Of a stretch of DNA of 35,634 nt, positions 1,035 to 31,294 are shown one piece after another. The stretch is from Candidatus Staskawiczbacteria bacterium (GTDB taxonomy: Bacteria; Patescibacteriota; Minisyncoccia; Minisyncoccales; Staskawiczbacteraceae). The notes beneath the pieces are model-generated. The model had not been told where the DNA came from and did no database searches. It worked only from the letters and a program-made list of their open reading frames with translations. Numbering within the stretch: the first letter of the stretch is position 1; each line of letters starts with the position of its first letter. Both the position numbers and the translations under genes were made by a program. The DNA lies in NCBI GenBank assembly GCA_903839895.1, contig CAIMDW010000027.1:1-35634 (forward strand). Direction: 5' to 3'.

Positions 1035-1061
1035 TTCTAGGTCTGCTATGCAGACAAAAAT

Positions 1062-13666: not shown

Positions 13667-13969
13667 TTAACCTTCGACTTCTTGCGGGACAGGAACAGAT
13701 TGTGCCTGGATTTTTTGCCGTTTTGAGGCAAAAAAGTGCTGGGCAATAGTCCTTCTTCCGTTATTGTCGGTTTCAACTCCGATTTTTCTCAATAGCAGCC
13801 AAAATGGAGTCAATGAAATAATCGCATTTTCCGATTGGATCTCGGCCAGCATGCCATGGGCATCCAACCAGGCAAATAGCAAGCCTATTGCGCAGACCGT
13901 TTCCGTATCTGGCGTTTGATCTCTTGAAATTTCATCGACTTTTTGAGCTAAGACGGCAAAGGCATACAT
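13667..13969 (-). CDS. hypothetical protein (100 aa, mostly helical), second gene of an orphan pair
   Basis: The track ORF starts at a TTG (13972). The ATG at 13969 is preceded by AAGGAGGG with a 9-nt spacer. Overlaps the upstream gene by 38 nt in another frame. No family recognised. Confidence 0.55.
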   Translation of the reverse strand: MYAFAVLAQKVDEISRDQTPDTETVCAIGLLFAWLDAHGMLAEIQSENAIISLTPFWLLLRKIGVETDNNGRRTIAQHFFASKRQKIQAQSVPVPQEVEG

Positions 13970-14492
13970 CAATGATTCCCTCCTTTTCCTTTATTAAATC
14001 TACTTCGACGATTGCAACCATTTTTTCGTGGTCGTAATCTCTCAACTTTCCAATTGAACATTCCCAAACAGTGTGCTTGGCGTTTGGCTGATTTGGGCTT
14101 TTTGGAGCAACGACAAATTTAACTCCCAGGTCATCACTCGGAATGATTACAGTTTCATTGAATCCCGGAATGAAAGAAAGCGTGTAAAGGCCATTTTCCG
14201 CCGGTATAGCAAGGTCCCGCATAATAAATACTGATACAATGCGGAAATTCCTTACGGGCGCCGTAAAAAGCTCTTTGCGCGGCTGGAAAAAATAATGCAG
14301 GTTTTCGTTTAGCGGCAGACTTGGCCCAACCACAAAGCGGTAAAGGCAACCATGATAGTATTGTTCGCATTCCCACTGCATGCGGCTTGCCGCGCCGTGT
14401 TTTCTGGCAAGAGTAAACATTCCAATCATTTCCGGCAGATCAGCCGGCGGATGTTCAGTTTTTCTAGACACCACAGTCACCTCCATTTCCAT
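13932..14492 (-). CDS. hypothetical protein (about 180-186 aa), first gene of an orphan pair
   Basis: The track ORF 13932..14672 runs across the dnaB promoter and start, so it is trimmed. The first plausible ATG is 14492 (MEMEVTVV...). GGAGGTG at codons 4-5 also suggests a GTG start at 14474 or 14471. About 53 percent GC in the sampled line. No family recognised. Confidence 0.5.
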   Translation of the reverse strand: MEMEVTVVSRKTEHPPADLPEMIGMFTLARKHGAASRMQWECEQYYHGCLYRFVVGPSLPLNENLHYFFQPRKELFTAPVRNFRIVSVFIMRDLAIPAENGLYTLSFIPGFNETVIIPSDDLGVKFVVAPKSPNQPNAKHTVWECSIGKLRDYDHEKMVAIVEVDLIKEKEGIIDVCLCRLSSKSR

Positions 14493-14529
14493 ATTTAATT
14501 TTAAATTTGCTGTTTCTTTAATTTTTGTA

Positions 14530-14558
14530 AAAATAGCATAAAAATACATTGTCGTCAA
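14530..14558 (-). promoter_or_regulatory. candidate promoter of the orphan pair, TTGACG-17 nt-TATTTT
   Basis: On the minus strand, TTGACG (14558..14553), a 17-nt spacer, then TATTTT (14535..14530). Back-to-back with the dnaB promoter. Confidence 0.4.
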
Positions 14559-14561
14559 GTC

Positions 14562-14590
14562 TTGTTCTGCACTTGCGATTTTGCTAATGT
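14562..14590 (+). promoter_or_regulatory. candidate dnaB promoter, TTGTTC-17 nt-TAATGT, with the ATG 6 nt after the -10
   Basis: TTGTTC at 14562..14567, 17-nt spacer, TAATGT at 14585..14590, then taacacATG. No SD. This geometry predicts a leaderless or near-leaderless mRNA. Confidence 0.4.
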
Positions 14591-14596
14591 TAACAC

Positions 14597-15940
14597 ATGG
14601 ATAAATTGCCTCCGCAAAATAACGAAGCAGAACAGTGCCTTTTGGGATGCTTGATGTTGGACAAAGAAGCAATTGTGAAAGTTGTCGATTTTATTCGGGC
14701 CGAAGATTTTTACAAAGGCGGGCACCAGGATGTTTACCAGTCTATGGCCGAACTTTATGAAAGGGGCGACCCGATTGATATTTTGTCTGTTTCCGCCAGG
14801 CTGAAAGAAAGGAATAAATTGGATGACATTGGAGGCTCGGCATATTTAAGTTCTCTCATAAACACGGTTCCAACCGCAACTCATGTTTACAATTATGCAA
14901 AAATTGTCAGGCAAAAGAAAATTTTGAGGGATTTGATTTCAGCTTCGCAAGAAATAGGCTTGTCTGCATTCAATGAAGCCGAAGAAGTTGATGATTTGCT
15001 GGACAAGGCTGAAAAAGCTGTTTTTGGAATTGGCCAGCGCTCGTTGACGCAGACATTTTTACCCATAAAAGACATTTTAGCCGACACTTTTGAAAGGCTG
15101 GACGAATTGTCAAAAAATGCCGGCCAAATGCGCGGAATTCCGACCAGTTTTACGGATCTGGACAAAATTTTAGGAGGTTTGCAAAAATCTGACTTGGTGG
15201 TTTTGGCTGCCAGGCCCTCGATGGGAAAAACTTCGCTGGCCTTGGATATTGCCAGAAACGTGGCGGTTTTGCAAAACAAGCCGGTGGGTTTATTCTCGCT
15301 TGAAATGTCTAAAGACCAATTAGCTGACAGGCTTTTGGCAAGCTTGGCAAACATAAATTTATGGAACATGAGGAATGGCAGGCTGACGCCGGACGATTAT
15401 TCCAGGCTCCAATACGCCATGGGAAGCTTGTCTGAATCGCCTTTATACATAGATGACGCGGGATCGGTAAATATCCTTCAAATCAGGGCTATGGCTCGCA
15501 GGTTGCAGGCAAACAAGGGCTTGTCGCTGATTGTGATTGATTACTTGCAGCTTATGGAACCTATGAATAAATTTGCTTCTCCGGTACAGCAAGTCACAGA
15601 AAACTCCAGGGCCTTGAAAATGCTGGCAAAAGAATTGAATATTCCGGTGCTGGTTTTGTCACAGCTTTCGCGAGCCGTGGAAGCCCGCACACCTCAAATC
15701 CCTCGTTTGGCTGATTTAAGAGAATCTGGAGCCATTGAACAGGATGCCGATGTTGTCATGATGATTTACCGCGAAGACAAGTACAACGAAAATTCGCTGA
15801 ACAAAAATATTGCCAAAGTTTTGATTGAAAAGCACAGAAATGGCCCGACCGGCGGAATTGATTTATATTTTGATGAAAACCGCGTAAGTTTTCGTAATTT
15901 AGACAAAGGCGAATATACATCTGACGGAGCTATGGGTTAA
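14597..15940 (+). CDS. dnaB: replicative DNA helicase DnaB
   Basis: N-terminal PPQNNEAEQCLLGCLM, Walker A ARPSMGKTS, VIDYLQLM, and RESGAIEQDADVV are classic DnaB motifs. Confidence 0.95.
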   Translation: MDKLPPQNNEAEQCLLGCLMLDKEAIVKVVDFIRAEDFYKGGHQDVYQSMAELYERGDPIDILSVSARLKERNKLDDIGGSAYLSSLINTVPTATHVYNYAKIVRQKKILRDLISASQEIGLSAFNEAEEVDDLLDKAEKAVFGIGQRSLTQTFLPIKDILADTFERLDELSKNAGQMRGIPTSFTDLDKILGGLQKSDLVVLAARPSMGKTSLALDIARNVAVLQNKPVGLFSLEMSKDQLADRLLASLANINLWNMRNGRLTPDDYSRLQYAMGSLSESPLYIDDAGSVNILQIRAMARRLQANKGLSLIVIDYLQLMEPMNKFASPVQQVTENSRALKMLAKELNIPVLVLSQLSRAVEARTPQIPRLADLRESGAIEQDADVVMMIYREDKYNENSLNKNIAKVLIEKHRNGPTGGIDLYFDENRVSFRNLDKGEYTSDGAMG

Positions 15941-15944: not shown

Positions 15945-16553
15945 ATGAACTCAATAGAAAAATTAGCGCAATTATTTAGGAAATTTCCCACGGTTGGCTC
16001 CAGGACTGCCATGCGATTTGCATATTATCTTGCAAAATTGCCCAAAGAAAAAATTGATGAATTGATAAGCGCAGTTTCCGAAGTGAAAAACAAGACAAAA
16101 TTGTGCAAAATGTGCTTTGATTTGTTTGAGCCATTCGACTCCGCTCAAAGCTTGTGCCCTATCTGCCAAAATTCTGCCAGAAATAAAAATTTGCTTTGCA
16201 TAGTGGAAAAAGAAGCCGACCTGATTTCTTTGGAAAGCACAAAAAAATTCAACGGATTATATTTTATTTTAGGCGGGACAATTTCGACAATGCGCAAAGA
16301 CGATATGTGTCACTTAAGAATTGAAGAATTTAAAAACAGAATTAAAAATAATAATTTTTCAGAAATAATTGTAGCCTTAAATCCAACGCCGGAAGGCCGA
16401 ACAACTTCTGTTTTGCTTGAAAACATAATAAAAGAAATTTTACCAAATCCAAACTTCAAAATAACTCACTTGGCACGTGGAATCCCTGTTGGCGGAGAAC
16501 TTGAATACGCCGACGAAGAAACTTTAGAAAACGCCTTGGAAGGCCGAAAATAA
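15945..16553 (+). CDS. recR: recombination protein RecR
   Basis: N-terminal helix-hairpin-helix, Zn finger CKMCFDL...CPICQ, Toprim segment LCIVEKEADL, and a length of about 200 aa. Confidence 0.9.
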   Translation: MNSIEKLAQLFRKFPTVGSRTAMRFAYYLAKLPKEKIDELISAVSEVKNKTKLCKMCFDLFEPFDSAQSLCPICQNSARNKNLLCIVEKEADLISLESTKKFNGLYFILGGTISTMRKDDMCHLRIEEFKNRIKNNNFSEIIVALNPTPEGRTTSVLLENIIKEILPNPNFKITHLARGIPVGGELEYADEETLENALEGRK

Positions 16554-16563
16554 CCAATAAAAA

Positions 16564-16588
16564 ACCGCCAAGGTAGGCGGTTTTTTTA
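16564..16588. terminator. bidirectional rho-independent terminator
   Basis: ACCGCC-aaggta-GGCGGT followed by TTTTTTT and preceded by AAAA. Lies between convergent recR and the giant surface-protein gene. Confidence 0.8.
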
Positions 16589-16595
16589 GTATTTA

Positions 16596-19500
16596 TTATC
16601 TATTTCCTGTTTTTTGGATTTGGGCAATTCTAGCTGTAAGTTCTTTTTCTGCTTTGTAAGTCCTTTTGATTTTTCTTTTGTTGTCAATGAATTTTTCAAT
16701 CCAGAAAAACATTCCAGACCTCCACATCCAAAGCAATAATAAAGTTATGAGCAATGGCAGGAAGAATGAATCAACCCAGAAGTTATTAGTCAAACCTGTT
16801 GAGATTGAGCTGGCTCCCAAAACTCCGGCCCTTGTGACAATCACCGAGGCGATTGCGGTAGGAGTGTTTGCAACAGAGCTTGTCACATAAGCGCTGTTAT
16901 TTAAAGTTGTAGAACCGTATGAGAAATTCTGTGATGGACCGACTTGTGCCTGATAAGTTATTGTAACTATCTGGCCGGCATAAATTGTGCCTAAGTTTAC
17001 CCCAGAGGTTATATCTCCAGTGTAACCGTAGTTGTTTCCATTGCAATTATTGCTTCCATAGTTTCCCGTGCAGGCTACGACAAGCTGGTTGCTGTAAACA
17101 AGGTTTGCAGGCAGATTATCCCTTACAATCACATTCTGGATATTTTGGTTGCCAGTGGCTTGCAAGGTTATCATGAACATAACCATGTTCGAAGGAGCCG
17201 CATATGTGGCAGTTGACCAGCCCGAACCCGATGTAAGGTTCCTTACTGTTTTGCTTACTGACAATGCTCCATTACTATAGTTGCTGTAAATAGTCATATC
17301 CTGGCCGTAAACTGTGTTGCCAGAGCAATCTTGTCCTGCGGCTCTGAAATGATAAGTATTGCTTGTTGTAACATCGTAAATGTTCGCGCTAAATGAACCG
17401 GAGCTTCCGATGTTCTGCCTTGCAGTCTCGCTTCCGTAATTTGTGCTTGTTCCATATTGGAACCAGGCCGAGGTGTTGCAAGTTGAATTACTGTTAGCAG
17501 TTAAGTATCCATTCAATGTTGCTTGGCTGTTGTAAACGTTAGTTGCAGAATTTGTCTGAACGCTTAAATAGCTGTTATTGTTTTGACAGGCATTATTGGA
17601 ACATCCATTCGGGCAATTTTGTATTAATCCTTCCTGAGCTCCGCATGAATTAAACCAATACAAATCACTTCCAGAGCATCTTTGCTGATAATTTGGAGTG
17701 CAGGTATTAATATTTCCATTGCAGGTTCCATTGCCGCATGTCTGGCTTGTTAGGCAGGTTGTCTGCAATTGGGCTTCTGTAGCGTTTGAGCAGAAGGAAC
17801 TTGCCGTTCCTGGGCTATTGCAGGTATAATTCTTGTAATTTTGGTAAACATTGTTGTTCTGGCAGAATAGAGAACCAATAGAGCCGCTTGCTCCGCAGTC
17901 GCTGTTAGTTGAGCATGCGACACCTTGAACCGAACAGCTTCCATTTGTGCATTGCTGGTTTGGGGAGCATGTTTGTGTAAGTTGAGGCGTTGTGGAATTT
18001 GAGCAGAAGCTTGTTGTTTTTCCAGGATTATTGCAAGAATAGGTTATAAAATTCTTGTAAGCATTGCCGGCCTGGCAGAAGGCATTGCCCGTAAGGCTAT
18101 TTGATCCGCAGTCGGAATTGGATCCACATGCGATGTCAGGAGTCGAGCAGCTTCCGTTATCACAGGTTTTATTTGTTCCGCAAGACGAAGTCAGTTGCGG
18201 TACAAGTGTGTTTGAGCAGAAACTTGTGGTTTTTCCAGGTTCATTGCAAAAATATGTGATCTGATTCCTATAAACATTGTTGTTCTGGCAGAATGGATTT
18301 CCTGTTAAGGCGTTGGTTCCGCAATCTGCACTTGCTGAGCAGGCAATATTTTTGTTTACGCAACTTCCGTTGCCGCATGTCTGGCTTGCTGTGCAAGTTG
18401 TTTTCAATTTGGCAACAGTGGAATTTGAACAAGATGAATTGACTGTGCCTGCGTTATTGCAGACATAAGTAATGTAATTTTGATATGCATTTCCGCTTTG
18501 GCAGAATAAACTTCCAGTATAAGCGTCGGTTCCGCATTGTGAATTCGTTGAGCATTTTACTGTGCCGGTTGTGCAAACGCTAGTTGATGTGACGTTTGAG
18601 TCCAAATTCCATGGCAATGAATTCGGATTACCATATGATTGCGTGTCCGACAGAGTATGAGGAGCTGTCTGATACCACAAGTCAGCCTGAGTTTTGCAGG
18701 ATGCATTTGATACAGAAATGTCAGTTGTGCCGGTCTTGTTTATATTTACAAGCGCAGATGATGCATAATATTGCTGAGTTGACATCCAGTTGGCCTCTCC
18801 TCTATTCCTGAACATTTTGTATGTGGCTGCGATCAGCGGAGCTGAACATTTTGTTGTGTTTGTTATATGATAAGTAACTTGGCTCCCGCTGTCAGTGTGA
18901 GTTATTGAAACTTTTCCATTAGCTAATGCCGCGCTCAATTCTGGGGCAGTCATTGTGCTTCCGTTCGCACAGCTGGCGGCAGCGGTTGCCGTTACGCTGA
19001 AATTATTGTTTGAATCGTCATGTGGATTTCCTAAAGCGGCACTGCTTTGATAAACTCCCATCCAAACATGGTAGGCATTGTCGGCTGGCCATGAATTTGG
19101 AACAGTCAAAGTATATGATCCTGTATTCGGCACATTTATAAGGCTATAACCTGCTACTGCAACTCCCCAATTTGAAATAGTCAACTGGGCGTGGGCGGCT
19201 GAATGCGCGCCGGCGGTTGTTGTCCATCGGATAGTTTGGGAAGATCCTTGAGCCCATTGCTCTCCTCCATTTGGATAATTTAATGTAAATGTTCCATAAT
19301 CAACTGCATTATTAACGCATGCGGCATTACTGCAAGTTTGGCTTGTTGTGCAGGCTTGATATAATGTTCCTTGCTTATCGCATGTGTCAAAGTTGTAAAT
19401 GGAATTGCCTACGCACTTTTTGTAATCATTTGCTGTGCATTTTGGCGAAAAAGATACGTTATATGTCACATAAGATCCATTATCTTCATGAGAATGGTCT

Positions 19501-19844
19501 CCTGTGCCGGCAAGACATCCAACTGGCTTTTGAGCTACCTGTACGTAGGATGTATTAAGTCCTGAAATATCAGATAATCCGCTAGCATATTTTACAGCAG
19601 AACGCACACAATAATTTAGCTGACCTGAATCAGGAACGCCAGGAGCACCTTCTCCATCTCCAATAGGGATGCAACTGCCGTTAGTCGGCAAAAGCGCGCA
19701 GTCTGGATCGGCTCCGCCATTATTATCGTAGTTCATTAATATCGACCCGGTTGTGGTGGATGCATTTATGTTACCCACGCACGGCAAAACCAACATCACT
19801 GATAAAATAATGCAGGCAAAAATTATTTTGTTTGCTGTCTTCAT
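16596..19844 (-). CDS. giant secreted Cys-rich repeat surface protein with a C-terminal membrane anchor (1082 aa)
   Basis: Signal peptide MKTANKIIFACIILSVMLVLPCVGNINA. Four tandem 71-aa Cys repeats flanked by related Cys modules. An Fn3/beta-sandwich-like segment (ATLNGYL...WFQYGTSTNYG). A DUF11-like segment (SVSKTVRNLTSG...VRDNLPANLVY). C-terminal TM FFLPLLITLLLLWMW followed by a charged tail of about 40 aa. Confidence 0.8.
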   Translation of the reverse strand: MKTANKIIFACIILSVMLVLPCVGNINASTTTGSILMNYDNNGGADPDCALLPTNGSCIPIGDGEGAPGVPDSGQLNYCVRSAVKYASGLSDISGLNTSYVQVAQKPVGCLAGTGDHSHEDNGSYVTYNVSFSPKCTANDYKKCVGNSIYNFDTCDKQGTLYQACTTSQTCSNAACVNNAVDYGTFTLNYPNGGEQWAQGSSQTIRWTTTAGAHSAAHAQLTISNWGVAVAGYSLINVPNTGSYTLTVPNSWPADNAYHVWMGVYQSSAALGNPHDDSNNNFSVTATAAASCANGSTMTAPELSAALANGKVSITHTDSGSQVTYHITNTTKCSAPLIAATYKMFRNRGEANWMSTQQYYASSALVNINKTGTTDISVSNASCKTQADLWYQTAPHTLSDTQSYGNPNSLPWNLDSNVTSTSVCTTGTVKCSTNSQCGTDAYTGSLFCQSGNAYQNYITYVCNNAGTVNSSCSNSTVAKLKTTCTASQTCGNGSCVNKNIACSASADCGTNALTGNPFCQNNNVYRNQITYFCNEPGKTTSFCSNTLVPQLTSSCGTNKTCDNGSCSTPDIACGSNSDCGSNSLTGNAFCQAGNAYKNFITYSCNNPGKTTSFCSNSTTPQLTQTCSPNQQCTNGSCSVQGVACSTNSDCGASGSIGSLFCQNNNVYQNYKNYTCNSPGTASSFCSNATEAQLQTTCLTSQTCGNGTCNGNINTCTPNYQQRCSGSDLYWFNSCGAQEGLIQNCPNGCSNNACQNNNSYLSVQTNSATNVYNSQATLNGYLTANSNSTCNTSAWFQYGTSTNYGSETARQNIGSSGSFSANIYDVTTSNTYHFRAAGQDCSGNTVYGQDMTIYSNYSNGALSVSKTVRNLTSGSGWSTATYAAPSNMVMFMITLQATGNQNIQNVIVRDNLPANLVYSNQLVVACTGNYGSNNCNGNNYGYTGDITSGVNLGTIYAGQIVTITYQAQVGPSQNFSYGSTTLNNSAYVTSSVANTPTAIASVIVTRAGVLGASSISTGLTNNFWVDSFFLPLLITLLLLWMWRSGMFFWIEKFIDNKRKIKRTYKAEKELTARIAQIQKTGNR
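17703..18554 (-). repeat. four tandem in-frame repeats of 213 nt (71 aa) inside the giant protein gene
   Basis: Residues 431-501, 502-572, 573-643 and 644-714 share the pattern C-x5-CG-x8-FCQ-x8/9-Y-CN-x8-FCSN-x10-C-x5-C-x3-C. Nucleotide strings such as cattgttgttctggcagaa recur near 17855 and 18270. Confidence 0.85.
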
Positions 19845-19946
19845 ATATTTTTTTGTCCTATCAAGTAGGACATTTATTTAGTTAAAAGCTTATGATTCAT
19901 AACCTTACCACATTATACATATTCTTGTCAAGTGGTATTACTGATT

Positions 19947-20633
19947 CTAACTTGTTTGCAATTCTGCTTGCACGGTTATTCTCTGATAATCCTTTCCCGG
20001 CGGCCAGCAACTTATCAAGGTTAGGACATTTTTACTTGCGTCTAATCCGTCCTGCGGAATGTCCGACCCTCTATTAATTATAGTCTTTTTAATAACTACA
20101 TATGTATATTGGACATTATTCATGTCAATTGAGATTTTATCACCTTCAGACAATTTGTCCAGCTGAGAGAAAATCCAGTCATGCTTGATTGTTGGCCATC
20201 CTGGAGGAGCCGAGTGTCCTAAAATAATTATCTGCCCTGTCTGACCTGGATAAACGGATCCCGGGTAATAAACTGCACCTTGGTCCAAATTTTTCATCAA
20301 ATCAGCTTTCACAGTGCTTGTTGCGAAAACAATCGGCACTGAAATGGAAATTTTTGGAATTTCCAAAGTATTTTGTTTTTCTGTATAAACCGTCTGCGCA
20401 GTTATTTTGGCCGGCGCGGCGGTTGTGGAATTTTGACTATGATTTGGATAAAAATACGCATCAATGGAAGTTGCATCAATAGACGGATAAGGATTAAAAA
20501 AATCACTGACCAGCCCATAAACTTCCTTGTAATTGAAAACCCATGAAACATCGTTCCAGTTTATTATTAGAAAGCTGGCAACGTACAATACCAGCGCAAG
20601 TTTCAATACTTTTTTTGCTTGGTCTTTACTCAT
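19947..20633 (-). CDS. sortase family transpeptidase
   Basis: N-terminal TM. Catalytic His in IIILGHSAPPG, Cys in LTLISCWPPG (TLxTC motif), Arg in YQRITVQAE. The start overlaps the stop of the upstream CAP gene by 1 nt (TAATG). Confidence 0.85.
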   Translation of the reverse strand: MSKDQAKKVLKLALVLYVASFLIINWNDVSWVFNYKEVYGLVSDFFNPYPSIDATSIDAYFYPNHSQNSTTAAPAKITAQTVYTEKQNTLEIPKISISVPIVFATSTVKADLMKNLDQGAVYYPGSVYPGQTGQIIILGHSAPPGWPTIKHDWIFSQLDKLSEGDKISIDMNNVQYTYVVIKKTIINRGSDIPQDGLDASKNVLTLISCWPPGKDYQRITVQAELQTS

Positions 20634-21592
20634 TAAATTAAAATTTGGTGAGGAATCAGAGAAATTACTGATCTTTCATTTATTAATGCGGCCGCCCCCA
20701 ATAGTACCACGACTAAAATCGTTTTAAAAGCGAACTTCCTTTCAAAGGTGATATTATTGCTGAAAAATAATAAAACCATTAAAATTCCAATGATCAGAAG
20801 GCAAACCCCATAAATCACGTTTTGTAATAATTTGTCATAATTATAAATTGCATAATTTGCAACTTTCGAAGCTAAATTTGTTTTTGCATTAGTGACTGGC
20901 ACTAATTCGGTCTGACCTGCCAAAACTTTTTCAGGAACCTCAGACGCTTGCGTTGCTGTTGCCGGTTTTATTGCAACCTGCGATATAGGATGCGATTTTG
21001 CCGCTGAAACAGGCTGGCTGTTTTTTACTGCTGGCTGTTTTACTGGCAAAGGACTTGCAAATTCCTGCACAACTACAATGGTATTATTTCCCCCGTAGCC
21101 CGCTAAAACCGCGGTTCCCACCTCGGTGTAATGCGTATTCACAATGTTTGCTTTGTGCTCTGGCGAGTTCAGCCATGCCTGGTAAACCTCTGAGGAATTA
21201 AAAAATCCGACCGCCAAATTTTCTCCGGCAAATTTATAATTATATCCGGCTTGCGAAAACCAATGCCATGGCGAAAGTCCTTGAGGGCTTGTGTGCGCAA
21301 AATAGTTATTCAAAACCATATTTTCAGCTTTCATCTGTGCGGCTTGGTCAAGTTTTGCGTTTTCAACCAAGGGTTTCAGTCCCGCCAATTCCCTGGTCTG
21401 GTTTACAGAATTCTGCAAGAAATTTTTTGTAATATCGGCAAAAAATATATTCTGCGGAAAATTTATTGAAATAAAAATTACCCCGATTTTAAAAATTAAA
21501 AGCAACGTAATAAAATACAGCAAAGCCTTGCTCTGCATGATTTTTTTAAGCATCTCAAAATCGAATTTTGCTTCCGGTAAATTGTAATCCAT
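20633..21592 (-). CDS. CAP/SCP/PR-1 domain protein (YkwD-like) with N- and C-terminal hydrophobic segments
   Basis: CAP motifs YFAHTSPQG, YKFAGENLA, WLNSPEHKANI. Start set at the ATG at 21592 because the track's TTG at 21601 lies inside the -10 box of a consensus promoter. Confidence 0.75.
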   Translation of the reverse strand: MDYNLPEAKFDFEMLKKIMQSKALLYFITLLLIFKIGVIFISINFPQNIFFADITKNFLQNSVNQTRELAGLKPLVENAKLDQAAQMKAENMVLNNYFAHTSPQGLSPWHWFSQAGYNYKFAGENLAVGFFNSSEVYQAWLNSPEHKANIVNTHYTEVGTAVLAGYGGNNTIVVVQEFASPLPVKQPAVKNSQPVSAAKSHPISQVAIKPATATQASEVPEKVLAGQTELVPVTNAKTNLASKVANYAIYNYDKLLQNVIYGVCLLIIGILMVLLFFSNNITFERKFAFKTILVVVLLGAAALINERSVISLIPHQILI

Positions 21593-21600
21593 ATGAATCA

Positions 21601-21629
21601 ATTATACATTAAAATCATATGTTTGTCAA
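21601..21629 (-). promoter_or_regulatory. consensus sigma70 promoter TTGACA-17 nt-TATAAT, 8 nt upstream of the ATG; predicts a leaderless transcript
   Basis: On the minus strand, TTGACA (21629..21624), a 17-nt spacer (21623..21607), TATAAT (21606..21601), then tgattcatATG at 21592. Confidence 0.7.
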
Positions 21630-21648
21630 TAACTATGCATTTTTTCCC

Positions 21649-22482
21649 TTACTTCCTTCCGCAGGTGAAGTTGTCACAGACAATTGCCCGGTCTTTCGGG
21701 CGCAGATCTATATAATATAAGCTTTTCCGCTGATTTTGAGTAATTTCGCCGGTTAGCAAGGAATTAAGCTTTACCAGCTGGTCGTTGGCATTGGAATTCT
21801 CGCTCAAATCAAAATATATCTGCCAGCCTTCGGTGGTTGTTGTATTCAGCCTGATTTGGCTGGCCACAACAGCGGTTTTTAGTCCAATTTGGAATTTATC
21901 CTGCAAATCTTTCTGGGTTTCTACCACTAAATCAACTACGTTTTGCTCTAAAACGGTTTGGCCAATTTCTGCATTTGAAGCTGGGCTCTCTACAATGACA
22001 AATCCTGAATTTTCGCCGTTTGCATTCTCAAAGAGGCTTCCAGTCTTGTCAAAATAAAAACAAGATTCGTCCTGCTGGCAAAAAATCCCGGCAGGAACTT
22101 TTTCGGTTATTTTTACCTCTAAACCTTGCATAAATTGCCTGCTCACATCAGCAACGGCTATTTCAGGGAATTTGCCAGCAATTTCTTTGCTAATTTTTCC
22201 GGCATCAGCCAAAAAAATGCTTCTTGAATTTAAAATGCCTAAAAATTTATGGCTGATATCGGCTAAGACAAGGCTTTCAATATTATCTTTCTGGACCTTC
22301 TGGTTTCCAGAAATTATTATATTGCTGATTTGCCAACCCGAATAAAACAAAATAAAATAACATGCCGAGGATGCCAAAATTACAACTAAAACCAAAATCC
22401 AAAACCACAGCTTTTTATATAGCGGAGTTTTCGGCCTTATTTTATGTATTTTCCCTCTTACGTGGGATTTTCTATAAGACAT
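21649..22482 (-). CDS. ftsQ: cell division protein FtsQ/DivIB-like (TM plus POTRA)
   Basis: Basic N-terminus, one TM (LWFWILVLVVILASSACYFILFY), then a POTRA-like ISNIIISGNQKVQKDNIESLV. Sits at the end of a cell-wall operon. Confidence 0.7.
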   Translation of the reverse strand: MSYRKSHVRGKIHKIRPKTPLYKKLWFWILVLVVILASSACYFILFYSGWQISNIIISGNQKVQKDNIESLVLADISHKFLGILNSRSIFLADAGKISKEIAGKFPEIAVADVSRQFMQGLEVKITEKVPAGIFCQQDESCFYFDKTGSLFENANGENSGFVIVESPASNAEIGQTVLEQNVVDLVVETQKDLQDKFQIGLKTAVVASQIRLNTTTTEGWQIYFDLSENSNANDQLVKLNSLLTGEITQNQRKSLYYIDLRPKDRAIVCDNFTCGRK

Positions 22483-23516
22483 TAAAGTCCTCTTTTAAAG
22501 CGCCTAAACTTTTCTACTAAATAATTCAGCCAGTATTTTTTTGAAATCACAAAGTCCTGCGTTTTTATAAATTCCTGCTTGTATCCGCCAAATCCCATTT
22601 TAAACAAAGTCGGCCCTGCCCAAGGGTGCTTCGGAAATTTTTCGGGATCCGTAAATCCCCAAAAGTCATACACCATGCAATATCTTTTTTTTGCTTCTTT
22701 TATGGCTTCCCACTGCAATAAATATGGAATAGAATATTTTGCAAATTTTCCCAGGGAAGCTGCCTGATGGTAATAAGCAATCCCAGACCAGAAAACTACC
22801 ATGGCTCCAGCCGTAATTTCGCCCTTATATTTGCCGAATAAAAATATCACTTGGCTATCTTTATTGAAAATTTCAAATTCATTTTTTACCGATTCGTCTG
22901 AAAACGGCACAAAATGCTGTCTTTTGGAAACCTCTTTATTTAATTTTTGGTAAATTGCAATGTCAGCCGGATTATTGCTTATTTCAATTGAGATATCCGG
23001 GTTTTCTGAAGCCTTTTTTATTACGTATCTGGTTGTTTTTCGCATATCTTTCAAAAGTTCTTCTTCTTTTGCAAAAATATCGAGCTTCCAAGTTGCCTCG
23101 TAAGCCGAGGCGTGCATTGGCGAATCCTGAAAACCCAAATCTTCAAAAACCATTTTATTTTCTTCATTTTCCAGCAAAATTGGCGAAACTCGTATAAAGC
23201 TGGCATTTTCAGCCTTTGCAATATCGTTCAAATGTAATAAAATCAAAGACAAAATTTCTTTTTTATCTTTTGCAGTCAAATTGGGCTTGATAACCGGCCC
23301 ATGCGGAATAAATAAAAACGTCCCCCGTTTTGCCGAAACTTTCACTACCAAAGCCACCGCCAGCAATGCCCCATCGTAAACCCCCAACCTCCAAATTTTT
23401 GCGCCGTTTTTTTCATTAAACTCCCCCCAATTCCAAGACTGCAGAAACGTCTTTTCCGTGCATTGCAAAAGAAATCCTTCCCATTCCTCCTTATTTGTAA
23501 TTTCGCGTAATTCCAT
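22482..23516 (-). CDS. FemAB-family aminoacyl-tRNA-dependent peptidoglycan peptidyltransferase
   Basis: N-terminal FLQSWNWGEF, a size of about 340 aa, and the ...AYYHQAAS... and DFWG segments are typical of FemX/FemAB/MurM proteins. Confidence 0.85.
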   Translation of the reverse strand: MELREITNKEEWEGFLLQCTEKTFLQSWNWGEFNEKNGAKIWRLGVYDGALLAVALVVKVSAKRGTFLFIPHGPVIKPNLTAKDKKEILSLILLHLNDIAKAENASFIRVSPILLENEENKMVFEDLGFQDSPMHASAYEATWKLDIFAKEEELLKDMRKTTRYVIKKASENPDISIEISNNPADIAIYQKLNKEVSKRQHFVPFSDESVKNEFEIFNKDSQVIFLFGKYKGEITAGAMVVFWSGIAYYHQAASLGKFAKYSIPYLLQWEAIKEAKKRYCMVYDFWGFTDPEKFPKHPWAGPTLFKMGFGGYKQEFIKTQDFVISKKYWLNYLVEKFRRFKRGL

Positions 23517-24770
23517 TTATTTAAAAGTTTTTAAAAAGTTTACTATTCTTTCGGCGTCTTTTTTGGATAAATTTATGTGGGTTGGTAAATTTAAGGTATG
23601 TTTTGCTAAATATTCGGCATTTGGGCAACTGCCTGGCATATATTTTATTTCGGCAATATTAGTATCGCATGGCGCAATTGGGGTTGTATACCAGTCGCCA
23701 AGCAAGATATTCTGCTTGTGCCAGGCTGAATAAATAATATCATGAGCGTCTTTATGTTTTACCGTAAAACGTAAAAATGCGCTTTTTCTATTATCGTATT
23801 TCACAGGTAATCCGAATTTAGTAGCCCTTAGGGCCTCGTAATAATAATTGGCAATATTCTGGCGCTTATTGTTAAATTCATCAAGCTTATTGAATTGGTT
23901 CAAAGCCATTATTGCCAAAGCATTTGGCAAAGCTTTCGGAAAATAATCTGGGCGCTTGCCCTGCTTTTCTTTCCAGCTTACAGCTTTAGACAATATATGA
24001 AGTCCCTGTGACAAAACCAAAAGGACTTTCCCCAAATCCAAAAAATTATAAACCGGCAAAATAATATAATTTAACAAAATGGGATGCAATATTTGTTGCA
24101 TAGTCCAACACATTGACGGCTTTCCAAATTGCTTTTGCAAATCTTGCAACTTTTTCCCAATTTCATCATCGTTAGTCACAGCCATTCCTCCATAAACCGA
24201 AGAAATAATTTTGTCTCGCGAAAAGCTGAAAAATGCAGCCTTGCTGTGCGACCCCACTTTTATTCCATTATATTCAGCGCCCAGGGAATGCGCGCAGTCT
24301 TCTATTAGTATCAAGTTATGTTCGGCGCAGACGGCTCTAATAGCGTCCATATCGGCCGGAAGTCCAAAAGTGTGCTGAACCACCACAACTCGAGTTTTAG
24401 GCGTAATTTTAACTTTTAAATCGTCTGCTGAAATATTGAAATCATCTGTATTGCAGTCTACATAAATTGGCTCCAGGCCAGCCCATAAAGCTGGGTTTGG
24501 CACGGCATTGCACGTAAAAGCCTGTAAAGCCACTCCACTGCCCTTCTCCAAATCCAAAGTTTTTAAAATTGCATAAAAACTGCTTCTGCCAGAATTAAAA
24601 GATACGGCATATTTTACTCCAAGATATTTCTTAAATTCTTCTTCAAGTTTTTCAATTGCCTTTCCCTTCTTCCAAAGCCACGGCCGAATAAGCAAATTCA
24701 GCGCGAGCTTTAAATCGTCTTTTTCCACATTCGGCGACAACGAAATTGATATCGGTTTAAAATAGCTCAT
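23517..24770 (-). CDS. DegT/DnrJ/EryC1/StrS-family PLP-dependent aminotransferase
   Basis: LIEDCAHSLGAEY, and FSFSRDKIISSVYGGMAV containing the PLP lysine. The overall layout matches the family. Confidence 0.85.
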   Translation of the reverse strand: MSYFKPISISLSPNVEKDDLKLALNLLIRPWLWKKGKAIEKLEEEFKKYLGVKYAVSFNSGRSSFYAILKTLDLEKGSGVALQAFTCNAVPNPALWAGLEPIYVDCNTDDFNISADDLKVKITPKTRVVVVQHTFGLPADMDAIRAVCAEHNLILIEDCAHSLGAEYNGIKVGSHSKAAFFSFSRDKIISSVYGGMAVTNDDEIGKKLQDLQKQFGKPSMCWTMQQILHPILLNYIILPVYNFLDLGKVLLVLSQGLHILSKAVSWKEKQGKRPDYFPKALPNALAIMALNQFNKLDEFNNKRQNIANYYYEALRATKFGLPVKYDNRKSAFLRFTVKHKDAHDIIYSAWHKQNILLGDWYTTPIAPCDTNIAEIKYMPGSCPNAEYLAKHTLNLPTHINLSKKDAERIVNFLKTFK

Positions 24771-26371
24771 TTTAGCAATTCAATTAATTTATTTGGGACT
24801 CGGCCTTCCAGCAAAACTGCGTCGCCGGATTTGCAGAATAAAGTTATCAAGGAATAGATGTCTTGCGGTTTGTCGCACAATACGATATTCTTCTCTTTCA
24901 TCCCATTTTCCATAGCTCCTTTTTTAATACTGGCAAATTTATCTTTTGTGGTAATTATCGCCATATTGCAAACCTGTGCGATTTTTCTGCCGATTTTTTC
25001 GTGTATTTCTGCAGATTTTTCGCCAAGTTCTATGATACAAGGCATTACAACAACTTTCTTATTTGGAAAAACTGCCAAATAATCCAAATCTGCCAAAACT
25101 CCGTCGGGGTTTGAAGAATATGAAGAATCTACAATATTTATGCCGTGCATTTCCTTTTTTAAAGAAATTCCTGCTTGCTGTGGCAAAATTTTCTTGCAAC
25201 CATCGGAAATTTCGCCAAAATCCATGCCTAATTTTTTGGCAATCAAAATGGCGCCTAAAAGATTCTGTATATTGTGCTTTCCCAGAATTCTTGCGTCAAA
25301 ATGCATCATCTCACCCGATTTATCAACTGCCAAAAAGGAAATGTTTTCTTGGCGCACCGAAATGCTATCTGACCAGATATCTGAATCTAAAACATTATTC
25401 GTAAAGCTATATAAATGCTTTTTTCCTTCAAATTTCTTGTAAAGCGCTTGGCAATATTTATTGTCGCCATTTACAATTAAAACTCCGTTGTCTGGCAATG
25501 AATCAGCCAACTCTTCGCCCCCTTCAGCTGAAAGCAAGTTTTTTATTGAGCCAAATAAGGCCAAATGCTGTTCATTTACGCCCGTTACCACGCCCAAATC
25601 TGGCTTTACTATATTGCAGACTTCTTTTACTTTTCCCTTGTCATATGCGCCCACTTCGGCAATAAAAATTTGGTGCTCGGGCTTTAAATCGTTCAAAATG
25701 CAGTTTGCTACGCCAATTTCCGAATTTTGGTGCTCTTTTGTGGACAAAACTTTGAATTTTTCAGAAAGTATCGTAGTCAAAAATTCTTTTGTGGAAGTTT
25801 TTCCGTAGCTTCCCGTAATTGCAATTACCTTCAATTTTCCGGCAGATTTTATCTGCGCCATCTTTTCTCCGGCAGTTTTTAAGGTCTTATTCCTTAAAGC
25901 CACAAAAATTGGCTGCAAAACCAGCACAATTATAGAAATGATTATCGGCAACAAGATATCAAATGTTAAAAGCAAGATTGGCTGTACCAAATCTGCGGTT
26001 TTTAAAGTACTGAATAAAAATATTATCACTGCCAGGAAGCTAATAAAAACTAGAAGTGAGGTTTTTTGAGTGCGTTTTGGCTTTAAGACAGACTTTTTTA
26101 TAATTGCTCTTAAATAAATAATTGCCTGGCAGAAATAAACTATAAGCAAAACCGAGACCGCAAAATCAAAAAACGGCTTTAAAATCAGCAAAAAAAGCAA
26201 AACTATTTTTAAAATCCAAACCAAGTTTAGGAATATTTTTTTGCCTTTTTCAGTACGAAAATGATCAATAAATCTGGCAATATGATAATCTTTCAGCTGC
26301 CACAAAAAAAGCCAAAACAGGACGTATTTTAGCATCCACAAAAGCCAAAATGTATCAAGTAATATGTACAT
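24767..26371 (-). CDS. murF: MurF-like UDP-MurNAc-tripeptide--D-Ala-D-Ala ligase fused to an N-terminal polytopic membrane domain
   Basis: P-loop ITGSYGKTSTKEF at residues 185-197, NSEIGVANCIL, EVGAYDKG, TGVNEQHLALFGS. Residues 1-160 are about five hydrophobic helices rather than the usual soluble MurF N-domain. Confidence 0.8.
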   Translation of the reverse strand: MYILLDTFWLLWMLKYVLFWLFLWQLKDYHIARFIDHFRTEKGKKIFLNLVWILKIVLLFLLILKPFFDFAVSVLLIVYFCQAIIYLRAIIKKSVLKPKRTQKTSLLVFISFLAVIIFLFSTLKTADLVQPILLLTFDILLPIIISIIVLVLQPIFVALRNKTLKTAGEKMAQIKSAGKLKVIAITGSYGKTSTKEFLTTILSEKFKVLSTKEHQNSEIGVANCILNDLKPEHQIFIAEVGAYDKGKVKEVCNIVKPDLGVVTGVNEQHLALFGSIKNLLSAEGGEELADSLPDNGVLIVNGDNKYCQALYKKFEGKKHLYSFTNNVLDSDIWSDSISVRQENISFLAVDKSGEMMHFDARILGKHNIQNLLGAILIAKKLGMDFGEISDGCKKILPQQAGISLKKEMHGINIVDSSYSSNPDGVLADLDYLAVFPNKKVVVMPCIIELGEKSAEIHEKIGRKIAQVCNMAIITTKDKFASIKKGAMENGMKEKNIVLCDKPQDIYSLITLFCKSGDAVLLEGRVPNKLIELLK

Positions 26372-27121
26372 TTATATATTTTCCAGGATTTTCTCGGATA
26401 AAATTTCTGGCTGTTCTTTATTTAAGCGATGCCCCGCGCCGGGAATCACAACCAGCTTGGAATTTTTTATCTTATCGTTTATTATTTTGCCTTCCTCAAA
26501 TGGAGTGTCGGCATCTTTGTCTCCCCAAATAATTATTGTTGGAACTTTTGTAAAAGGCAGCTGAAAACCTACATCTTCACTGACAACGTTCAAATAAGTC
26601 TGTTTCATTACGCCATTAGCATAAACGTAGTCTGATTTTCGGATTATGAATTTATAAACGGCTTTCCTGAACAATGGATAATATGGCAAAAAGGAAAACA
26701 AGCCAACAACTTTTGCAATTTTTGCCGAAATCCCTTTTTTAGCGGTTTTTTTCCTTATAATTGCAGCTGAAACCAAGAACAATTTATCCACTTCCTGGGC
26801 ATGCTTTATGGCAACTTTCAAAGCCAAAGCTCCGCCAAAAGAGTGCCCCATCAAATAATAATTCCCCAAATTCAATTCTTTTGCGAATTGCTCAATCCAG
26901 GTTATGTATTTATTGGTATTCCAGGGAACTTGCAAAGGCTCTGATTGGCCAAATCCGGGCAAATCAGGCACAATTACCTTGTATCCTTTATCTGAAAGTA
27001 ACTCGGCCACTGCGGTCCATCTGTCGGAATTGGAATTCCATCCATGCAAAATCAAAAAAGGCTTGCCCTCTCCAAAAATCTGATATCTTGTCGTAATTCC
27101 GTTTATTGTTATCTCTGGCAT
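26372..27121 (-). CDS. alpha/beta-fold hydrolase
   Basis: HGWNSNSDRW, nucleophile elbow GHSFGG, and C-terminal PGAGHRL supplying the catalytic His. Confidence 0.8.
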   Translation of the reverse strand: MPEITINGITTRYQIFGEGKPFLILHGWNSNSDRWTAVAELLSDKGYKVIVPDLPGFGQSEPLQVPWNTNKYITWIEQFAKELNLGNYYLMGHSFGGALALKVAIKHAQEVDKLFLVSAAIIRKKTAKKGISAKIAKVVGLFSFLPYYPLFRKAVYKFIIRKSDYVYANGVMKQTYLNVVSEDVGFQLPFTKVPTIIIWGDKDADTPFEEGKIINDKIKNSKLVVIPGAGHRLNKEQPEILSEKILENI

Positions 27122-27124
27122 TTT

Positions 27125-28411: not shown

Positions 28412-28415
28412 AGTT

Positions 28416-28820
28416 TTATTTATTTAAAATTGATGAATGAAATTTTTCGGGTTTATAGGGCTTTAATCTATCTATTTCAATATTCTCCAATCCCCTCTCT
28501 TTCAATTCTTTTTCCAAATTATCAGCATAATTGTGCTGGTCATATCCCAAGCAAATCACATCGGGCTTCAAATTTTCTATAAGCTTATAAGGATCTGTTT
28601 CGTCCCCCAGCAGCGCGTCATCAACCAAATCGCAATCTATCAAATCCCCAACCCTCTGCTCTTCGTCTTTTTTCGGCAAATTTCCCTTCAATTTTTCGAC
28701 ATTTTTATCCCTGCCGGCAACAACAATCAAGTAATCTCCGTATTCCCGAGCCTGCCTGAAAAAATCTAAATGCCCTTCATGCAGTCCGTCAAATGTCCCA
28801 AAAACCATCACCTTTTTCAT
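28416..28820 (-). CDS. cytidylyltransferase-like nucleotidyltransferase (HxGH; RibL/TagD-like)
   Basis: MKKVMVFGTFDGLHEGHLDFF is the canonical N-terminal beta-strand plus HxGH motif. I prefer the ATG at 28820, which leaves a 5-nt gap after lysS. The track start at 28862 would overlap lysS by 37 nt. Confidence 0.7.
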   Translation of the reverse strand: MKKVMVFGTFDGLHEGHLDFFRQAREYGDYLIVVAGRDKNVEKLKGNLPKKDEEQRVGDLIDCDLVDDALLGDETDPYKLIENLKPDVICLGYDQHNYADNLEKELKERGLENIEIDRLKPYKPEKFHSSILNK

Positions 28821-28825
28821 ATTTT

Positions 28826-30346: not shown

Positions 30347-30434
30347 GATTTATCAAATATATTATTGCTGAAATTGCGTTGCGACACCTTGCTATTTATA
30401 CATAATACCAAAATTAAAAGCATAGGTAAACAGC

Positions 30435-30463
30435 TTGACGATATCAATCTATTAGTTTAAAGT
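30435..30463 (+). promoter_or_regulatory. candidate promoter of the purO-like gene, TTGACG-17 nt-TAAAGT
   Basis: TTGACG at 30435..30440, 17-nt spacer, TAAAGT at 30458..30463. About 40 nt upstream of AGGAGG and the ATG. Confidence 0.4.
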
Positions 30464-30507
30464 CTATATAAGCCTTTTAGGTGAACCCAAAAAGCAGGAG
30501 GAATATT

Positions 30508-31284: not shown

Positions 31285-31294
31285 GCAAAAAATA

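Follow-up and report, generated by a model that had tools for sequence, protein, structure and literature searches.

A sortase of one Patescibacteria order and a candidate non-canonical sorting signal on the surface protein encoded beside it

What does a sortase act on, when the large surface protein encoded beside it has no LPXTG in front of its C-terminal membrane segment? The question was raised by a locus in a 35,634-nt stretch of DNA from Candidatus Staskawiczbacteria (the whole stretch analysed, called the window here). Sortases have been reported in more than half of the CPR/Patescibacteria genomes (PMC6744442). Our literature search found no paper that defines what these sortases recognise.

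The locus is a unit of three genes on the minus strand. It opens with a sigma-70-type promoter, TTGACA-17-TATAAT (21601..21629), which matches the consensus at 12 of 12 positions, as the initial annotation had it. This is the sole perfect match within the 6.3 kb from 16300 to 22600, where about 0.009 sites would be expected by a rough estimate from base composition. A CAP/YkwD gene, a sortase gene and the gene for a 1082-aa surface protein follow in this order. The CAP stop and the sortase start overlap in TAATG, with base 20633 common to both ORFs, and the surface protein ORF starts 102 nt past the sortase stop. The overlap and a distance of about 100 nt had both been described before. A strong bidirectional intrinsic terminator (16559..16586; 11-bp stem with 5 GC pairs, T-runs on both strands) sits between the convergent surface protein gene and recR, and closes the unit. 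One promoter would transcribe all three genes, for the CAP-domain protein, the sortase and the secreted surface protein.

An 8-bp inverted repeat in the spacer between the sortase and surface protein genes (19854..19872) ends 10 nt before the ATG of the latter. It was ruled out as a terminator, since A's, not T's, follow it on the coding (minus) strand.

The listed ORF of the CAP gene (20633..21601) starts with a TTG at 21601. This codon lies inside the -10 box, and the ATG at 21592 is the likelier start. The -10 box ends 8 nt before this ATG, so that the transcript is probably leaderless or nearly so.

The sortase (19947..20633, minus strand; 228 aa) matched PF04203 with 68.7 bits (cut-off 26.6, E 5e-19) and TIGR01076 with 51 (cut-off 39.35). 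It is composed of an N-terminal TM anchor (residues 3-24), a conserved juxtamembrane stretch, INWxDVSWxFNY, and a catalytic barrel (81-225). His140 (LGHSAP..WP), Cys209 and Arg218 (SCWPPGKDYxR) were invariant in 28 sortase homologues, and aligned with the catalytic part of C. perfringens SrtC. The AF2 model (pLDDT 82.6) displayed a sortase fold, the eight-stranded beta-barrel, with a membrane anchor. Foldseek paired this model at probability 1.0 with many sortases, the top ones being of class C and class E (E ~1e-10), and the PDB profile matches were SrtC and SrtD. The predicted catalytic residues and the fold indicate an intact enzyme with putative transpeptidase activity.

None of the NCBIfam sortase class models (A-F) reached its cut-off for this sortase. 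The best was the LPxTATN-specific SrtD (59.1 bits, cut-off 140), followed by class C (56.8, cut-off 160), class D (52.3, cut-off 165), class E (49.2, cut-off 160) and class F (31.8, cut-off 166). The genome also encodes a second sortase, which is class-F-like.

The presumed substrate (16596..19844, minus strand) starts with a signal-peptide-like sequence and contains 58 Cys in its 1082 aa, in agreement with the Cys-rich secreted protein first described. Four tandem 71-aa repeats with 8 Cys each occupy residues 431-714 (17703..18554); the repeats can be aligned, and their Cys return with a period of 71 residues. They are followed by an Fn3-like beta domain (residues 760-852, 17289..17567; strands 2-93 of the 323-aa piece in AF2 model md595fa2540c4) and a DUF11-type beta-sandwich stalk domain (residues 861-1005, 16830..17264; AF2 strands 102-246), all on the minus strand. 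The DUF11 matches were borderline, at 26.7 bits against 24.6 with PF01345 (C-terminal piece) and 25.1 against a cut-off of 24 with TIGR01451. Among 76 homologues, 55 matched DUF11, with a best E of 7e-20. The C-terminal module also gave a weak match to an RrgB isopeptide-domain model (27.9 bits, cut-off 30). In relatives, the C-terminal ~240 aa are kept beside the sortase and the N-terminal part is variable.

The C-terminus reads ...GASSISTGLTNNFWVDSFFLPLLITLLLLWMW, followed by a 41-aa tail (R1042-R1082). The candidate sorting motif is A-S-S-I-S-T-G-L-T-N-N (residues 1011-1021, 16782..16814), with the presumed scissile bond between T1016 and G1017. It runs into the hydrophobic membrane segment FWVDSFFLPLLITLLLLWMW (residues 1022-1041, 16722..16781; AF2 helix 263-284), which carries a conserved D-S-F-x-L-P-L, the Pro being invariant and the D and L at least 90% conserved. 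The basic, putatively cytoplasmic tail (residues 1042-1082, 16599..16721) was predicted as a single long helix (AF2 287-321). A conserved W and a K-x-L..I..I pattern in it recur among homologues, and its length bears out the unusually long charged tail of about 40 aa that had been pointed out. In the AF2 layout, the DUF11 domain leads to a disordered motif loop, the TM helix and the basic helix. The loop is of low confidence (pLDDT <50 at piece residues 252-258) and lies just before the predicted helix, with the T-G 5 residues ahead of the helix.

The initial annotation had found no LPXTG or LAXTG in this protein. This held at the sorting position, and did not hold internally, where LAGTG (111-115) and VPNTG (238-242) are present. 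Both lie about 800-900 residues away from the C-terminal TM helix.

An alignment of C-termini, which had been suggested as a check, revealed a shared motif before the TM segment. The T-G of ISTG was invariant in 27 homologues (alignment A2, T257/G258), and the invariant columns of the conserved module were P, T, G, P and L only. The motif has the form A-(S/T)-x-(V/I)-(S/P)-T-G-(L/I)-T-N-N, and the TM helix and the basic helix of about 41 aa come after it. The order-wide consensus reads (V/A)xGA(T/S)x(V/I)(S/P/A)TG(L/I)TNN. Column conservation was 0.78 in the motif, the highest of the module, 0.64 in the TM helix, 0.60 in DUF11 and 0.53 in the tail.

T-G was present in all 68 unique order-wide tails, which had a median length of 41 aa and a median net charge of +7. 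The position of P in LPXTG was taken by V or I in 56 of the 68, and that of L was polar and variable. Among 1.84 billion representative proteins, the signal occurred in 355; in the best 150 of these it was at the extreme C-terminus, and 148 of these 150 contained T-G. The two exceptions read TA and AG, which are known variants of sortase sites. VNTA and VSTA were read in divergent proteins that are encoded next to the sortase and had escaped the profile.

Compared with the signal described by TIGR01167, the LPXTG pentapeptide is replaced by S-I-S-T-G. The T-G dipeptide just before the hydrophobic segment is present. The protein also ends as that signal does, in a hydrophobic helix and then a basic tail, though an atypically long one. 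A 79-aa tail query gave no match to NCBIfam models even at E <= 10, and none of the NCBIfam or Pfam sorting models, LPXTG-type or other, matched the signal.

The proteins that carry the signal, as their extreme C-terminus, range in length from ~200 to 2200 aa, and their heads are diverse, with PKD, Big_9, DUF4114, cadherin-like and CBM35 domains among them. This genome contains a second candidate substrate (contig C44, ~335 aa), in which a TM helix and a short, 14-aa basic tail come after TISTGQTNYFLTDSFFLPL.

Of the 201 genomes sampled from the same order, 66 had the signal. The sortase subfamily (SCWPPGKDYxR) accompanied it in 62 genomes, while 4 had the signal only (2 of them weak matches), 21 the sortase only and 114 neither. 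As related genomes are not independent of each other, the Fisher p-value for these counts overstates the association. The both-or-neither pattern was repeated in the per-family tallies. Signal and sortase were at most 8 kb apart in 43 of the 62 genomes having both. At 27 of 36 loci, a gene no more than 6 kb downstream, in the orientation of the sortase gene, encoded a tail with the pattern of (V/I/A)-x-T-(G/A), Pro and basic residues; in 21 it was the next gene. Genomes with the signal had one to three carriers of it, usually one or two.

In the phylum sample, 330 of 401 genomes had sortase-domain matches, and the signal was absent from all 400 genomes other than this one. In 4 genomes of the genus, the neighbour of the sortase has a different tail without TG, and the ISTG-type protein is encoded elsewhere. 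A 'type-2' tail was restricted to one family and unlinked to the sortase. Neither this genome nor four near-complete relatives yielded convincing canonical LPXTG tails.

Two outcomes had been named in advance as contrary to a non-canonical signal: canonical LPXTG substrates elsewhere with an unconserved STGL-type segment, and a sortase and giant protein that do not co-occur. Neither was observed; convincing LPXTG substrates did not turn up, and sortase and signal do co-occur. The initial annotation had left two alternatives. One of them, a non-canonical motif at the S-T-G-L stretch, gained support from the conservation, the disordered loop, the co-occurrence with the sortase and the conserved three-gene neighbourhood. 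The other, with the substrates elsewhere and the giant protein simply membrane-anchored, was not supported.

The first gene of the unit encodes a polytopic membrane protein of the CAP/SCP (YkwD-like) type (20633..21592, minus strand; 319 aa counted from the ATG at 21592). It contains an N-terminal TM segment, an extracellular CAP domain, a variable P/T/S/Q linker and two C-terminal TM segments, and its end, IPHQI(I/L)I, is conserved in the family alignment. A match to PF00188 with 64 bits (cut-off 21.1, E 3e-17) places it in the CAP superfamily; the matches to TIGR02909 YkwD (106 bits, cut-off 171) and to the DalA model (E 4e-16) were under the cut-offs. At 30 of 35 related loci, the CAP gene is the direct upstream neighbour of the sortase gene, and most of the gaps measure -14 to +30 nt. 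Whether the three-gene neighbourhood is kept had been asked at the outset; it is, both within the genus and in other families. No CAP partner was seen beside the inspected sortase homologues from outside the order. In this genus, the CAP gene adjoins ftsQ and cell-wall genes. The bacterial CAP-family lipoprotein DalA binds peptidoglycan (PMC10470522), and the CAP protein here is a probable wall-binding or positioning partner of the sortase.

We propose that the locus represents a dedicated sortase system of one Parcubacteria-type CPR order, in which a non-canonical three-part signal would have an adhesin covalently bound to the wall. We put the probability of this reading at about two in three. 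The TM helix and the basic tail would halt Sec export, and the flexible, exposed motif would be offered to the sortase. Cys209 would cut between T1016 and G1017, and the Thr carboxyl would be moved to an amine of a peptidoglycan precursor, by which the adhesin would become covalently wall-bound. The genes for MreCD, PBP2, a Mur ligase, FemAB and FtsQ in the window show that there is a peptidoglycan wall and, with it, a possible cross-bridge acceptor. The candidate motif peptide for cleavage or transfer by the sortase is GASSISTGLTNN. In the surface protein, a conserved DUF11 stalk would bear a variable, adhesin-like head. An adhesion module would fit the heads of the homologues, which vary and include PKD, Big_9, cadherin-like and CBM types. 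The signal points to lineage-specific wall fixation of proteins.

Several observations speak against this reading. The motif is without both the Leu and the Pro of LPXTG, and we know of no characterised sortase that takes V or I at the Pro position. The DUF11 stalk is common to all carriers, so that the conservation of the tail may in part reflect common descent rather than a portable signal. There are also the 21 genomes with a sortase and no detected signal, and the 4 genomes of the genus with a TG-less tail beside the sortase. Finally, conservation is much stronger in LTNN..DSFxLPL, in the TM helix and in the 41-aa tail than is usual for a discarded sorting peptide, and such conservation past T-G fits a protein that keeps its anchor.

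The giant protein might accordingly be a permanent type I membrane protein, with a TM segment and basic helix that are functional, for example in docking to cytoplasmic or divisome components. Rather than being cleaved, ISTGLTNN would then serve next to the membrane as a hinge, or as the place where the CAP protein or the sortase makes contact, and the sortase would have another target or a non-proteolytic partner role. With values of 0.64 and 0.53, the conservation of the TM helix and the tail is indeed about on a level with that of the folded domains, and at W and L positions it reaches 90% or more across 76 proteins. Usual sortase tails are four to eight times shorter than this one, and the motif at which cleavage is presumed has no L or P. 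We still consider this explanation unlikely. Sortase substrates have this layout, in which a T-G, invariant here, sits in a disordered loop some 5 residues ahead of a TM helix and its basic tail; the few departures from T-G read TA and AG. Nor does the sortase co-occur with another class of candidate substrates, be it LPXTG tails or the unlinked 'type-2' tail of one family. The long helix appears dispensable, because the tail of the C44 paralogue has only 14 aa. A linkage that is coincidental or merely regulatory, with the tail cut by another membrane protease or acting only as a stop-transfer anchor and the sortase serving unrelated, undetected substrates, would draw on the single stalk family of all carriers, whose common ancestry could explain the tail, on the 21 of 83 sortase-bearing genomes of the order without a detected signal, and on the second, class-F-like sortase. 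It is very unlikely in view of the presence of the sortase subfamily in 62 of 66 signal genomes, within 8 kb in 43 of the 62. Sortase domains are also widespread in the phylum sample while the signal is confined to this genome, and the CAP partner is missing beside the inspected homologues outside the order.

The closest solved relatives of the sortase by sequence and fold are of class C (C. perfringens SrtC, E 2e-14; A. oris SrtC2, E 8e-11), as they would be for a pilus-type polymerase. Such an enzyme would join DUF11-stalk copies head to tail, from the motif T to a lysine of the next subunit, and yield a fibre instead of, or before, wall anchoring. The C-terminal module resembles tandem Ig-like pilin or adhesin stalks, with the weak RrgB match mentioned above, and an F-N-P-Y stretch (sortase residues 44-47) bears a loose resemblance to the lid motif of class C. 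This stretch, however, is present in close relatives only and is not kept across the order. The sortase stops right after the barrel with no C-terminal TM segment, and scored 56.8 of the 160 bits set for the class C model. The conserved module has no invariant Lys or pilin motif in the 27-homologue alignment, and the few signal-bearing genes of a genome, usually one or two, have very different heads. The combination of a Lys motif, several pilin genes, a lid and a C-terminal TM segment that marks sortase-assembled pili was thus not found, and we regard a fibre as highly improbable.

Our preferred reading, the dedicated sortase system, may extend further, although we hold the extension to be doubtful. 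The polytopic CAP protein would be obligatory, binding the wall or presenting the substrate, and the signal would be an extended module of ~70 aa. LTNNFWxDSFxLPL and the basic helix would be read, within the membrane or below it, by the TM segments of the CAP protein or by the INWxDVSWxFNY helix of the sortase, and V/I-x-T-G would be cleaved. This might constitute a new, CPR-specific sortase class that displays fast-evolving host-attachment adhesins. Such a three-component sorting machine is not known to have been described for sortases.

For one large order of uncultured bacteria that probably live attached to hosts, the locus supplies a fixed partner protein and a concrete, testable motif of the substrate. 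If the proposed sorting is true, wall-anchored surface proteins, likely the molecules of host contact, could be predicted from CPR genomes. It would also widen the known range of sortase recognition sequences, which is relevant to sortase-mediated ligation tools, and link a bacterial CAP domain to the sorting of cell-wall proteins. The sortase paradigm would be left standing.

With class A sortases and LPXTG (S. aureus SrtA), the system has in common a short motif with T-G at its end, a hydrophobic helix, a positive tail, a membrane-anchored His/Cys/Arg enzyme and a Sec-exported substrate with Ig-like stalk domains. In contrast, the motif here, (S/T)-x-(V/I)-(S/P)-T-G, lacks the Leu and the Pro, and the residues past the G (LTNN..DSFxLPL) are strongly conserved. 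The tail is helical and about 41 aa long, compared with 5-10 aa. SCWPPGKDYxR replaces TLxTC...R, no class cut-off is reached, and the one or two substrates per genome are encoded beside the enzyme.

Sortases with variant motifs include class B (NPQTN), C. difficile SrtB ((S/P)PxTG), class D (LPNTA(TN)) and class E (LAxTG). Together with the NCBIfam 'marine'/class GN sortase and its adjacent target, these pairs share with our locus a sortase beside one or a few cognate non-LPXTG targets. To our knowledge, the second motif position is Pro or Ala in all of them, whereas it is Val or Ile here. The present system also differs in its CPR lineage, in the CAP-domain membrane protein as a fixed partner, and in scoring 59 against 140 bits with the SrtD model. 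Class C sortases and Gram-positive pilins provide the closest solved structures and sequences and a similar Ig-like, pilin-resembling stalk. They differ from our system in the conserved pilin lysine, the pilin gene set, the C-terminal TM segment of the enzyme and the conserved lid, all of which are missing here.

The bacterial CAP superfamily, represented by the B. subtilis YkwD family and by Rhodobacter DalA, a peptidoglycan-binding divisome lipoprotein (PMC10470522), likewise has its CAP domain outside the cytoplasmic membrane. Here, the scores with the YkwD and DalA models are under the cut-offs, the CAP domain has one TM segment on its N-terminal side and two on its C-terminal side, and translational coupling ties its gene to that of the sortase.

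The genes for the CAP-domain protein, the sortase and the 1082-aa Cys-rich giant surface protein follow one another on the minus strand. The stop of the CAP gene (20633-21601 as the listed ORF; Pfam CAP, E 3e-17) shares one base with the start of the sortase gene (19947-20633; Pfam Sortase, E 5e-19), and 102 nt separate the sortase stop from the start of the giant gene (16596-19844 in the ORF listing). The unit is preceded by a TTGACA-17-TATAAT promoter (21629-21601, minus strand), which matched the consensus at 12/12 positions and was the only perfect one in 6.3 kb. The overlap, the spacing of about 100 nt and the promoter were thus as the initial annotation had described them. A strong bidirectional terminator (16559-16586, both strands) lies at the end of the unit, and recR and dnaB on the plus strand are convergent with it.

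The listed TTG start of the CAP ORF falls within the -10 box. Translation likely starts at the ATG at 21592, which would make the mRNA nearly leaderless; only 8 nt lie between the end of the promoter and this ATG (21590-21629, minus strand). No evident Shine-Dalgarno-like sequence was found upstream of the giant gene. The spacer between the sortase and giant genes contains an 8-bp inverted repeat, TGTCCTA...TAGGACA (19854-19872), 10 nt 5' of the giant start codon. The repeat does not qualify as a terminator on the coding strand; it might affect how the giant gene is translated.

From the N- to the C-terminus, the giant protein consists of a signal-peptide-like segment, a Cys-rich head (four 71-aa repeats with 8 Cys each), an Fn3-like domain, a DUF11 beta-sandwich, a loop, a TM helix and a basic helix. 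In the predicted structure, S-I-S-T-G is in the low-confidence loop (pLDDT below 50), and the end after the TM helix is a single long basic helix of 41 residues, in agreement with the charged tail of about 40 aa noted previously. The reported lack of LPXTG or LAXTG held true near the membrane anchor. It did not hold for the interior of the protein, where LAGTG (residue 111) and VPNTG (residue 238) occur far from the anchor. No NCBIfam or Pfam model recognized the tail at E <= 10, and nothing relevant was among the matches. When the fold of the C-terminal module was searched, the matches were no more than generic tandem Ig-like ones, and their TM-scores were low. A stalk stabilized by CnaB-type isopeptide bonds was ruled out: KTVRN lacks a conserved Lys, and the match to the RrgB domain was under the cut-off.

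A shared motif ahead of the TM helix, which the initial annotation had proposed to look for in related genomes, was found. In an alignment of 27 C-terminal modules, invariance was limited to the motif's T and G, one Pro of DUF11, the Pro within the LPL of the helix and a single tail Leu. Column conservation peaked at the motif (0.78), followed by the TM helix (0.64), DUF11 (0.60), the tail (0.53) and the Fn3-like domain (0.43). The consensus of 68 unique tails from many families was (V/A)-x-G-A-(T/S)-x-(V/I)-(S/P/A)-T-G-(L/I)-T-N-N-(L/F)-(L/F/W)-x-D-S-F-(F/L)-L-P-L. Searching 1.84 billion representative proteins with the tail profile gave 355 matches, 273 of them at E <= 1e-10. Among the best 150 of the 355, the match lay at the very C-terminal end, in proteins about 200-2200 aa long, and T-G occupied the site in 148; the remaining two had T-A and A-G.

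The assembly itself (45 contigs, 593 kb in total, completeness 86%) encodes another carrier of the signal. This protein of about 335 aa (contig C44, about 20-1040, plus strand) has a TISTG...DSFFLPL signal like that of the giant; near its end, ...TISTGQTNYFLTDSFFLPL precedes a TM helix and a tail of 14 aa. The protein is likely a second substrate. Its short tail shows that the long one is not required.

The distribution of the signal was compared with that of the sortase in 201 sampled genomes of the order Minisyncoccales. The tail profile matched 66 of them, mostly once per genome, and the window-type sortase subfamily was present in 83. Both occurred in 62 genomes, the signal only in 4, the sortase only in 21 and neither in 114, an association whose nominal p-value is inflated by the kinship of the genomes. 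Family-by-family tallies repeated the pattern. The sortase and the giant-type protein therefore did not fail to co-occur in relatives, an outcome the initial annotation had allowed for: 62 of the 66 signal-bearing genomes had the sortase, and two of the 4 others were weak matches containing stops. When both were present, they lay within 8 kb on one contig in 43/62 genomes. In two sortase-only genomes, adjoining proteins had V-N-T-A or V-S-T-A ahead of a TM helix; the motif has thus diverged there and is not gone. In a phylum-wide sample of 401 genomes, 330 had sortase-domain matches, and the signal was found in the window genome only.

The gene order, whose conservation had also been raised as a check, is retained within the genus, and further families of the order show it too. 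Named genomes supplied 43 loci; of the 35 that extended far enough upstream, 30 had CAP immediately before the sortase. A (V/I/A)-x-T-(G/A) tail with Pro and basic residues was encoded on the same strand within 6 kb downstream in 27 of 36 loci, and by the very next gene in 21. The proteins at this position vary in length and N-terminal domains and have the last ~240 residues in common; heads on the common DUF11 stalk include PKD, Big_9, DUF4114, cadherin-like, SprB, CBM35 and F5/8-C domains. FemAB (22482-23516) and ftsQ (21649-22482), both on the minus strand and confirmed by Pfam (the latter by its FtsQ POTRA domain), were not counted as part of the system, since the loci retrieved from other families did not show this neighborhood.

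In the sortase, an N-terminal TM helix precedes a confidently predicted beta-barrel (pLDDT 82.6). Among solved structures, Foldseek placed class C and class E sortases closest to the enzyme (E about 1e-10), and its closest relatives by sequence profile were C. perfringens SrtC and SrtD; it scored below every NCBIfam class cut-off (at best 59 bits vs 140 required). His140 (LGHSAP..WP), Cys209 and Arg218 (SCWPPGKDYxR) did not vary across 28 homologues. In seven homologues from other orders of the phylum, the motif was of the more usual kind, TC(T/W/Y)P.GT..(K/R)R(L), and the ~1.5 kb searched on each side of them contained no CAP match.

A juxtamembrane segment of the sortase, INWxDVSWxFNY (residues 23-37; gene 19947-20633, minus strand), is strongly conserved: N25 never varies, and conservation is at least 90% at W26 and N34. 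Its composition is similar to that of the conserved LTNNFWVDSF after T-G in the substrate. Both are expected at the outer membrane face and may form a docking pair. A second sortase of 170 aa, only distantly related to the first (E 7e-6 between them), is encoded on contig C17 (1769-2281, plus strand), between an upstream 272-aa ORF with a signal-peptide-like N-terminus and a downstream 359-aa repeat protein. Neither neighbor had an obvious sorting tail.

The CAP protein spans the membrane several times and ends in a conserved IPHQIII. It was ruled out as a second substrate: no conserved T-G-type motif precedes its C-terminal TM segments. A wall-binding or positioning role is weakly suggested by how tightly it is coupled to the sortase and by the binding of peptidoglycan by the CAP-family lipoprotein DalA (PMC10470522).

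Other anchors were also looked for. A regular expression for an LPXTG-like motif plus a hydrophobic segment, applied to all ORF tails of the 593-kb assembly, returned spurious ORFs only. TIGR01167 gave marginal matches, to the hydrophobic part only, in the assembly and four near-complete relatives; this search was uninformative, because all 14 control genomes matched likewise. In 4 genomes of the genus, all of which also carry an ISTG-type protein, a 'type-2' tail (..SGFWEFLKRWYLWIL..FRRLSSE) adjoins the sortase. Its carriers are paralogous Cys-rich DUF11 surface proteins whose ends lack TG and read (S/T)SGFWEFLKRWYLWIL, then a TM helix, then FRRLSSE. They are encoded outside the window, at C22:18296-19411 (minus strand) in this assembly and at L038:5705-7966, L039:8096-9778, L046:7114-8259 and L052:5982-7472 elsewhere. 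As an alternative signal for the sortase it was rejected: strong matches were confined to the Staskawiczbacteria family, and outside those 4 genomes it was unlinked to the sortase. The tail could represent another type of C-terminal anchor or of sorting signal.

A peptidoglycan wall is clearly present, since MreC, MreD, PBP2, a Mur ligase, FemAB and FtsQ are encoded in the window. The envelope-rich stretch of these genes (22482-34547, minus strand) also includes LysRS, SerRS, an alpha/beta hydrolase and a DegT aminotransferase; an LtaS-like sulfatase-domain protein (1103-3001) and a PGA_cap protein (7019-7990) are encoded elsewhere in the window. This gene set fits a monoderm-type wall. Two minus-strand ORFs had no Pfam match, one of 523 aa (7960-9531) and one of 246 aa (13932-14672); the latter overlaps with the start of dnaB and is possibly not a genuine gene.

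The data agree with a dedicated sortase system whose putative recognition motif is specific to the lineage. By analogy with characterized sortases, the enzyme would cleave the giant between T1016 and G1017 and transfer it to a peptidoglycan amine. The main rival is that the giant keeps its membrane anchor uncleaved, and the conservation of the TM helix and tail, far above the usual level for a discarded peptide, speaks for it. On the other hand, most of the tail is missing from the C44 paralogue, and no other substrate class follows the distribution of the sortase. The resemblance to class C also suggested a pilus polymerase, yet class C features, a conserved lysine and a multi-pilin locus are all absent.

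Sortases are common among CPR bacteria (PMC6744442; PMC7143001), and in the literature searched, no paper was found that defined their sorting signals. What is predicted here is a variation on known sortase systems, in which the motif is non-canonical, the signal is extended and a CAP-domain protein is the partner. Like LPXTG signals, the signal in the window keeps the presumed T-G scissile pair and the three-part layout. It differs from them in that a variable polar residue takes the place of Leu, Val or Ile that of Pro, and the tail is unusually long.
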